Positions 15,501-15,539 of a stretch of 64,000 nucleotides of DNA are shown one piece after another (the first letter of the stretch is position 1; every line of letters begins with the position of its first letter). The stretch lies in the NCBI RefSeq assembly GCF_001677475.2, contig NZ_CP015229.1; one strand, 5' to 3'. The notes under the pieces were generated by a model. The model did not search any database, had not been told where the DNA came from, and saw nothing but the letters and a program-made list of their open reading frames with translations. Both the position numbers and the translations under genes were made by a program. Source of the DNA: Escherichia coli. Its GTDB lineage: Bacteria; Pseudomonadota; Gammaproteobacteria; Enterobacterales; Enterobacteriaceae.

Positions 15501-15539
15501 CAATGCCATCAAGTGAATTTATATGCAATAAATATGATT
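15501..15539 (-). promoter_or_regulatory. Candidate tandem ARG boxes (ArgR operator) in the artJ promoter
   Basis: agTGAATttatATgCAat-aaa-tatgattaaataatttaa: two 18-bp AT-rich boxes 3 bp apart, resembling the TnTGAATwwwwATTCAnw consensus. Confidence 0.4.

Follow-up and report, generated by a model that had tools for sequence, protein, structure and literature searches.

The segment 15512-15550 of the window (the whole stretch of Escherichia coli DNA that was analysed, 64,000 nucleotides) is very probably the ArgR operator of the artJ promoter, consisting of two 18-bp imperfect palindromes (ARG boxes) set 3 bp apart. The operator is already characterised in E. coli and belongs to ordinary textbook regulation. 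The ARG-box match, the spacing, the excess over chance, the conservation across enterobacteria and a one-base difference from the K-12 operator were obtained in this analysis. ArgR binding, its arginine dependence and the steric exclusion of polymerase are taken from published experiments in K-12 and would apply to the window by analogy. It is established knowledge that, through the artJ and artP sites, production of arginine-uptake proteins can be halted when arginine is plentiful. Beyond annotation the significance is small: a real regulatory site was recoverable by sequence reading alone, and the coordinates of the artJ and artP operators are fixed.

The initial annotation had placed tandem boxes at 15501-15539 and had read them as sites of ArgR repression. 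The string that it gave occurs verbatim in the window, but the true 39-bp site lies 11 bases higher, at 15512-15550. The earlier span stops 11 bases short of the end of the second box and takes in 11 unrelated bases, and the 18-mer from 15501 scores -20.1 bits with an ArgR PWM. The repression reading is supported by PWM rank, by conservation and by the K-12 data summarised in PMC6640053. On the window strand the site reads AGTGAATTTATATGCAAT (15512-15529), aaa (15530-15532) and TATGATTAAATAATTTAA (15533-15550). Because artJ is on the minus strand, the first of these is the promoter-proximal box and the last the distal box:

15512-15529, minus strand, promoter-proximal ARG box of artJ, ATTGCATATAAATTCACT in gene sense, predicted to lie at -36 to -19
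15530-15532, minus strand, 3-bp spacer between the ARG boxes, ttt in gene sense
15533-15550, minus strand, promoter-distal, degenerate ARG box of artJ, TTAAATTATTTAATCATA in gene sense, predicted to lie at -57 to -40

Gene order and transcription units

The minus strand of the window carries an artPIQM-artJ cluster of the Escherichia type, and the gene names in the cluster agree with the RefSeq annotation of matching E. coli loci. The genes of the region are:

13555-14682, plus strand, rlmC
14711-15442, minus strand, artJ, periplasmic arginine-binding protein of 243 aa, with its ATG at 15442
15734-16402, minus strand, artM
16402-17118, minus strand, artQ
17125-17856, minus strand, artI, paralogue of artJ and second gene of artPIQM, 243 aa
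17874-18602, minus strand, artP, with its start at 18602
from 18820, ybjP

In the mechanical ORF list artJ and artP are overextended, with starts at 15493 (ATG) and 18701 (TTG) respectively. We judged the real starts to be 15442 and 18602 from the signal peptide, the Shine-Dalgarno sequence, the annotated K-12 genes and 80 orthologues. The earlier description of artJ and artI as flanking artPIQM does not hold, as artI is the second gene of the operon itself, and artJ comes after artM and forms its own unit. A terminator scan located the end of the artPIQM unit:

15555-15594, minus strand, intrinsic terminator of artPIQM, a 14-pair hairpin (15594-15562) with a T-run

This terminator ends about 5 bp before the distal ARG box of artJ, and its T-run is kept upstream of the distal box in other genera. 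The presence of a strong terminator ahead of the distal box confirms that artJ is a separate transcription unit. Upstream of the terminator, the artM-artJ intergenic region contains two REP-like palindromic units, GCCGGATGCGGCGTGGACGCCTTATCCGGCCTAC and one of the TGATAAGACGCGCCAGCGTCGCATCAGAC type (15600-15725), and these account for the many extra BLAST places found per genome (median 6).

ArgR box search

A symmetric 18-bp ArgR PWM was refined from the best box pair of eight K-12 MG1655 operators (carA, argF, argA, argG, argR, argD, argECBH and argI), with the art sites excluded. The training sites recovered are the textbook ArgR operators. Among the controls, the known target hisJ scored 21.0 bits and the known non-target argT -7.4. 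The accepted spacing between ArgR boxes is 3 bp, occasionally 2.

The initial annotation had proposed such a scan, together with a search for a similar box pair upstream of artP (18603-18819). In the 64 kb the artJ pair ranks first and the artP pair second, the latter being present at 18658-18696. Among single boxes, 15512-15529 comes first (20.4 bits), followed by 18658-18675 ahead of artP (17.4 bits). For pairs spaced at 21 bp, the artJ site at 15512-15550 scores 28.8 bits and the artP site 23.8 bits; with pairs that share the artJ proximal box set aside, the next in line reaches 11.9 bits. At artJ a centre-to-centre spacing of 20 bp gives 13.6 bits as against 28.8 at 21 bp. The proximal box has one mismatch to the ARG-box consensus, and a search for WNTGAATWWWWATTCANW with at most one mismatch returned 15512-15529 as the sole match in the window.

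Scores of this size are rare by chance. In 200 dinucleotide-shuffled versions of the window the best pair scored 9.3 on average (sd 3.1) and 21.6 at most, and none of these versions reached the score of the artJ or the artP pair. When the local AT-rich segments were shuffled, the observed pair score was reached in 0.04% of cases at artJ (about 4 in 10,000) and in 0.02% at artP. The artJ control region shows three features of an enterobacterial ArgR operator, namely 18-bp imperfect palindromes, a 3-bp separation and conservation in orthologous control regions.

Conservation across enterobacteria

A scan for ArtJ with one genome per species gave 80 loci from more than 20 genera, including Escherichia, Salmonella, Citrobacter, Klebsiella, Raoultella, Enterobacter, Kosakonia, Buttiauxella, Cedecea, Atlantibacter, Trabulsiella, Kluyvera and others, with 79 usable artJ upstream regions. 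The best pair was the same operator, AAAAAATAtTTAATCATT ttt ATTGCATATAAATTCAtT, in 78 of the 79 regions. In the lone exception (L065) the scan slips one register onto the same proximal box, and the spacing of the boxes is fixed in all loci. Mean information in the anchored columns of the 80 enterobacterial sequences was as follows:

artJ proximal box, 1.75 bits per position, nearly invariant
artJ spacer, 1.44 bits per position, T-rich and conserved
artJ distal box, 1.28 bits per position
artJ upstream flank, 0.75 bits per position
most of the artJ 5' UTR, 0.65 bits per position

The distal box is the weaker part of the operator. It scores 8.4 bits, which is inside the range of accepted weak boxes, and one of its half-sites has two of five matches, so that on its own it would not stand out from the AT-rich background. 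In K-12 a G replaces the A at window position 15533 (position 18 of the box) and the score drops to 3.6 bits. It could be argued from these low scores that the proximal box is the sole genuine ArgR site and that the distal box is an AT-rich terminator tail or an UP-element-like stretch contacted non-specifically. The distal box does directly follow the terminator T-run, and ChIP-exo work has reported that ArgR subunits make non-specific contacts with flanking DNA (PMC4381063). However, the positions of the distal box that define ARG boxes are the conserved ones: T7, A8, A12 and C15 are invariant across the genera and A16 is kept in 91% of the 80 sequences, while neighbouring positions drift. 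The strong preference for the 21-bp register over 20 bp also counts against a single site, and a weak second box is nothing unusual in a genuine operator, as argR (8.4 bits) and argD (10.4 bits) show. In addition, two boxes at artJ are described in the literature as presented in PMC6640053. We therefore regard the single-box reading as highly improbable and treat the site as a tandem operator.

Putative promoter elements of artJ

The putative promoter elements of artJ overlap or directly adjoin the proximal box of the tandem operator:

15523-15528, minus strand, putative -35 hexamer TTGCAT within the proximal ARG box, from geometry and alignment invariance
15500-15508, minus strand, putative extended -10, TGG-CATTGT, from conservation, with a predicted start at the A at 15493

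The segment TGGCATTGT lies directly downstream of the proximal box, and its TGGCA, G and T are 90-100% conserved across genera. It may be read as an extended -10 made up of TG, one base and CATTGT, in which A2 and T6 of the hexamer are invariant. The predicted promoter (TTGCAT, 17 bp, TGn-CATTGT) would place the boxes at -57 to -19, and this geometry agrees with the published overlap of boxes and promoter. CATTGT is a poor -10 that is rescued solely by the upstream TG. A generic sigma-70 scan returned no minus-strand promoter in the region, which is consistent with a weak -10 that relies on the extended TG. An alternative -10, TG-T-TATCCC, was rejected on conservation: outside Escherichia TGGCATTGT is kept and TATCCC is not.

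As the putative -35 hexamer is inside the proximal box, promoter function alone would conserve part of that box, and Lrp binds the neighbouring artP control region (PMC6640053); the AT-rich block might then be conserved as a core promoter (-35, spacer and UP element) or as a site for a further regulator (Lrp or H-NS, for instance) and not through ArgR, but this is extremely unlikely, since all 18 proximal-box positions are conserved, among them the ATTCA half on the spacer side, which is not read by RNA polymerase, the PWM was derived from unrelated operators, PartJ is not regulated by Lrp (PMC6640053), and binding and repression of artJ by ArgR are published, as recounted in PMC6640053.

The artP operator and putative promoter

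The second operator of the cluster lies upstream of artP, and the putative artP promoter has a 17-bp spacer and, as at artJ, a -35 hexamer within the promoter-proximal box:

18658-18696, minus strand, tandem ARG boxes of artP, TTTAACTTTTAAAGCAGA aat ATTGCATAATTATTCTGT in gene sense, predicted to lie at -57 to -19
18646-18674, minus strand, putative artP promoter, -35 TTGCAT (18674-18669), 17-bp spacer, -10 TACTAT (18651-18646)

The score of the artP pair (23.8 bits) is made up of 17.4 and 6.4 bits, and the artP control region is identical to that of K-12. Of the 74 artP-carrying loci, 73 retain the operator, TTTAAsTTTTAACGCAtA aat ATTGCATAAyTATTCTGy. The artP +1 is predicted near 18639 from the position of these elements. 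As an independent check, numbering from this +1 puts the G+C-rich 21-mer at exactly the coordinates of PMC6640053, -116 to -96. The G+C content of the 21-mer is 86% as counted here and 76% as stated in PMC6640053, and this discrepancy suggests that the artP +1 of that paper may be about 2 nt away.

Comparison with known ArgR operators

Caldara (2007), as summarised in PMC6640053, has reported that ArgR binds artJ, artP and hisJ each at two 18-bp ARG boxes 3 bp apart. In the same summary the boxes of K-12 artJ, at the same locus as those described here, overlap the -35 element of the promoter. Arginine-dependent binding of hexameric ArgR to K-12 artJ has been reported (Caldara 2007; Cho 2011, by ChIP; both as cited in PMC6640053), on a sequence that differs from the window at one of 39 bases. 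The remaining 38 operator bases are identical, and this is the single substitution between the distal box and the ATG. The A of the window at 15533, where K-12 has G, is common to four of the six other Escherichia loci sampled, and the PWM predicts that ArgR would bind slightly more tightly with A than with G. The artJ operator would correspond to about 900,645-900,683 in MG1655.

The artPIQM operator, at which ArgR and Lrp act as competitive repressors (PMC6640053), has the same spacing and promoter overlap as that of artJ, and its proximal box opens with the same ATTGCATA as the artJ proximal box. The two differ in PWM score (23.8 bits at artP versus 28.8 at artJ), and Lrp binds the artP region but not PartJ (PMC6640053). 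The operators of argF, argI, carAB P2, argECBH and other biosynthetic genes share the 18+3+18 design and the consensus with artJ, and the artJ proximal box scores level with the best carA or argF boxes. The biosynthetic operators usually have two good boxes, with pairs of 31-41 bits, whereas artJ has one strong and one weak box, like argR and argD.

According to the account of Caldara 2007 given in PMC6640053, ArgR at PartJ sterically excludes RNA polymerase and blocks initiation. Bound ArgR occupies one face of the DNA over about four helical turns and induces a bend of 70-90 degrees (PMC4381063). If the K-12 mechanism holds for the window, plentiful arginine would lead hexameric, arginine-bound ArgR to cover about four helical turns, from -57 to -19, at artJ and to keep sigma-70 RNA polymerase off the promoter. 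The exclusion of polymerase would shut down synthesis of ArtJ, the high-affinity arginine-binding protein. The second operator of like geometry at 18658-18696 would control artPIQM. In K-12, repression of PartJ-lacZ that depends on ArgR and arginine is published, with a repressibility about 9-fold higher for PartJ than for PartP, a gap attributed to Lrp, which competes with ArgR at artP and has no action on PartJ (PMC6640053). Comparative genomics places artPIQM in the core of the ArgR regulon and counts artJ among its taxon-specific members (PMC5343134). A strong increase in artJ expression has also been reported for uropathogenic growth in urine (PMC1413537).

ArtJ and ArtI

ArtJ and ArtI had been called clear paralogs of about 243 aa each, and the alignment bears this out, with 154 of 241 positions identical (64%), no gaps and E = 2e-123. 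Both proteins match Pfam SBP_bac_3 (PF00497), and each passes solely its own NCBIfam equivalog cut-off. The artJ product scores 534 bits with ArtJ_Ecoli (cut-off 510) and the artI product 537 bits with ArtI_Ecoli (cut-off 522), whereas the cross-model scores of 385-395 bits fall below the cut-off of the other model. The ArtI-type copies from 74 loci share 83-99% identity with ArtI and 61-67% with ArtJ. The proposal of an old binding-protein duplication fits this pattern, since two cleanly separate orthologous groups across the 74 loci imply that the duplication predates the sampled Enterobacteriaceae. The hisJQMP cluster likewise has two paralogous SBP_bac_3 binding proteins per membrane complex and ArgR control on part of the cluster. 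HisJ and ArgT share 70% identity, and their genes are neighbours that precede those of the permease, whereas ArtI is encoded within its operon and ArtJ downstream with its own promoter.

The artJ coding sequence of the window is unusually divergent. It is 93.2% identical to K-12, with 50 differences, of which just 4 change an amino acid, and its best coding identity among 5,426 complete E. coli genomes is at most 95.4%. By contrast, the 158-bp artJ control region was found in 5,424 of the 5,426 genomes and is 100% identical to that of several, and potFGHI reaches 99.0%. Gene conversion between artI and artJ as the source of the allele gave no signal, as among the 50 sites that differ from K-12 artI has the base of the window at 17 and that of K-12 at 22. 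Import of artJ from a sampled Escherichia species was also rejected; the allele is 87.7-93.6% identical to all of them, and no donor was identified among these species.

The artJ leader

Several further features were observed in the artJ leader. A GC hairpin, GCCG-cagaca-CGGC, lies at 15491-15478 on the minus strand, at about +3 to +16 of the predicted transcript. Other genera retain it, 94% of alignment cells being paired in the 4-bp helix, and a few compensatory changes occur; support from covariation is weak (the observed values were reached in 4 to 6 of 500 shuffles). The block AAGATTGACAGACGGGAG (15467-15450, minus strand), which closely precedes the artJ ATG, is almost invariant in more than 20 genera. 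This block holds a perfect TTGACA (15463-15458) and the Shine-Dalgarno sequence GGGAG, and its conservation exceeds what a ribosome-binding site alone needs. In 12 of the 80 artJ leaders, of the Klebsiella/Raoultella/Enterobacter type (L027, L033, L049, L050, L052 and others), the sequence CACAACAUCAU occurs. It is complementary to GUGAUGUUGUG in the R1 region of GcvB (K-12 sequence), and the window has CCAAAAAUCAU instead.

The hairpin, the AAGATTGACAGACGGGAG block and the occurrence of CACAACAUCAU in the leaders of those relatives might point to a post-transcriptional layer of artJ control beyond the ArgR operator, which we consider unlikely. If true, it would mean stabilisation of artJ mRNA or control by a small RNA, neither of which is described in the literature searched. 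Pairing of GcvB with the artJ leader of the window was rejected as not significant: compared with shuffles, the duplex energy has a p of about 0.07, and the leader lacks the CACAACAY motif that 12 of 80 relatives carry. No link between GcvB and artJ regulation was found in the literature searched.

The AT-rich island between ybjP and ybjQ

An AT-rich island lies at about 19400-22000, between ybjP and ybjQ, with a G+C of 0.29-0.36 as against 0.47-0.58 in its flanks. Two single ArgR-like sites in the island, 20490-20507 (14.6 bits) and 19899-19916 (13.6 bits), were dismissed as chance matches, as they are partnerless and their pairs score at most 11.9 bits, in the range of the shuffles. The island carries an ORF of 600 aa (19950-21752) that is annotated in E. 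coli as a pentapeptide repeat-containing protein. The island is absent from K-12 and is found at full length in 1,124 of the 5,426 genomes.
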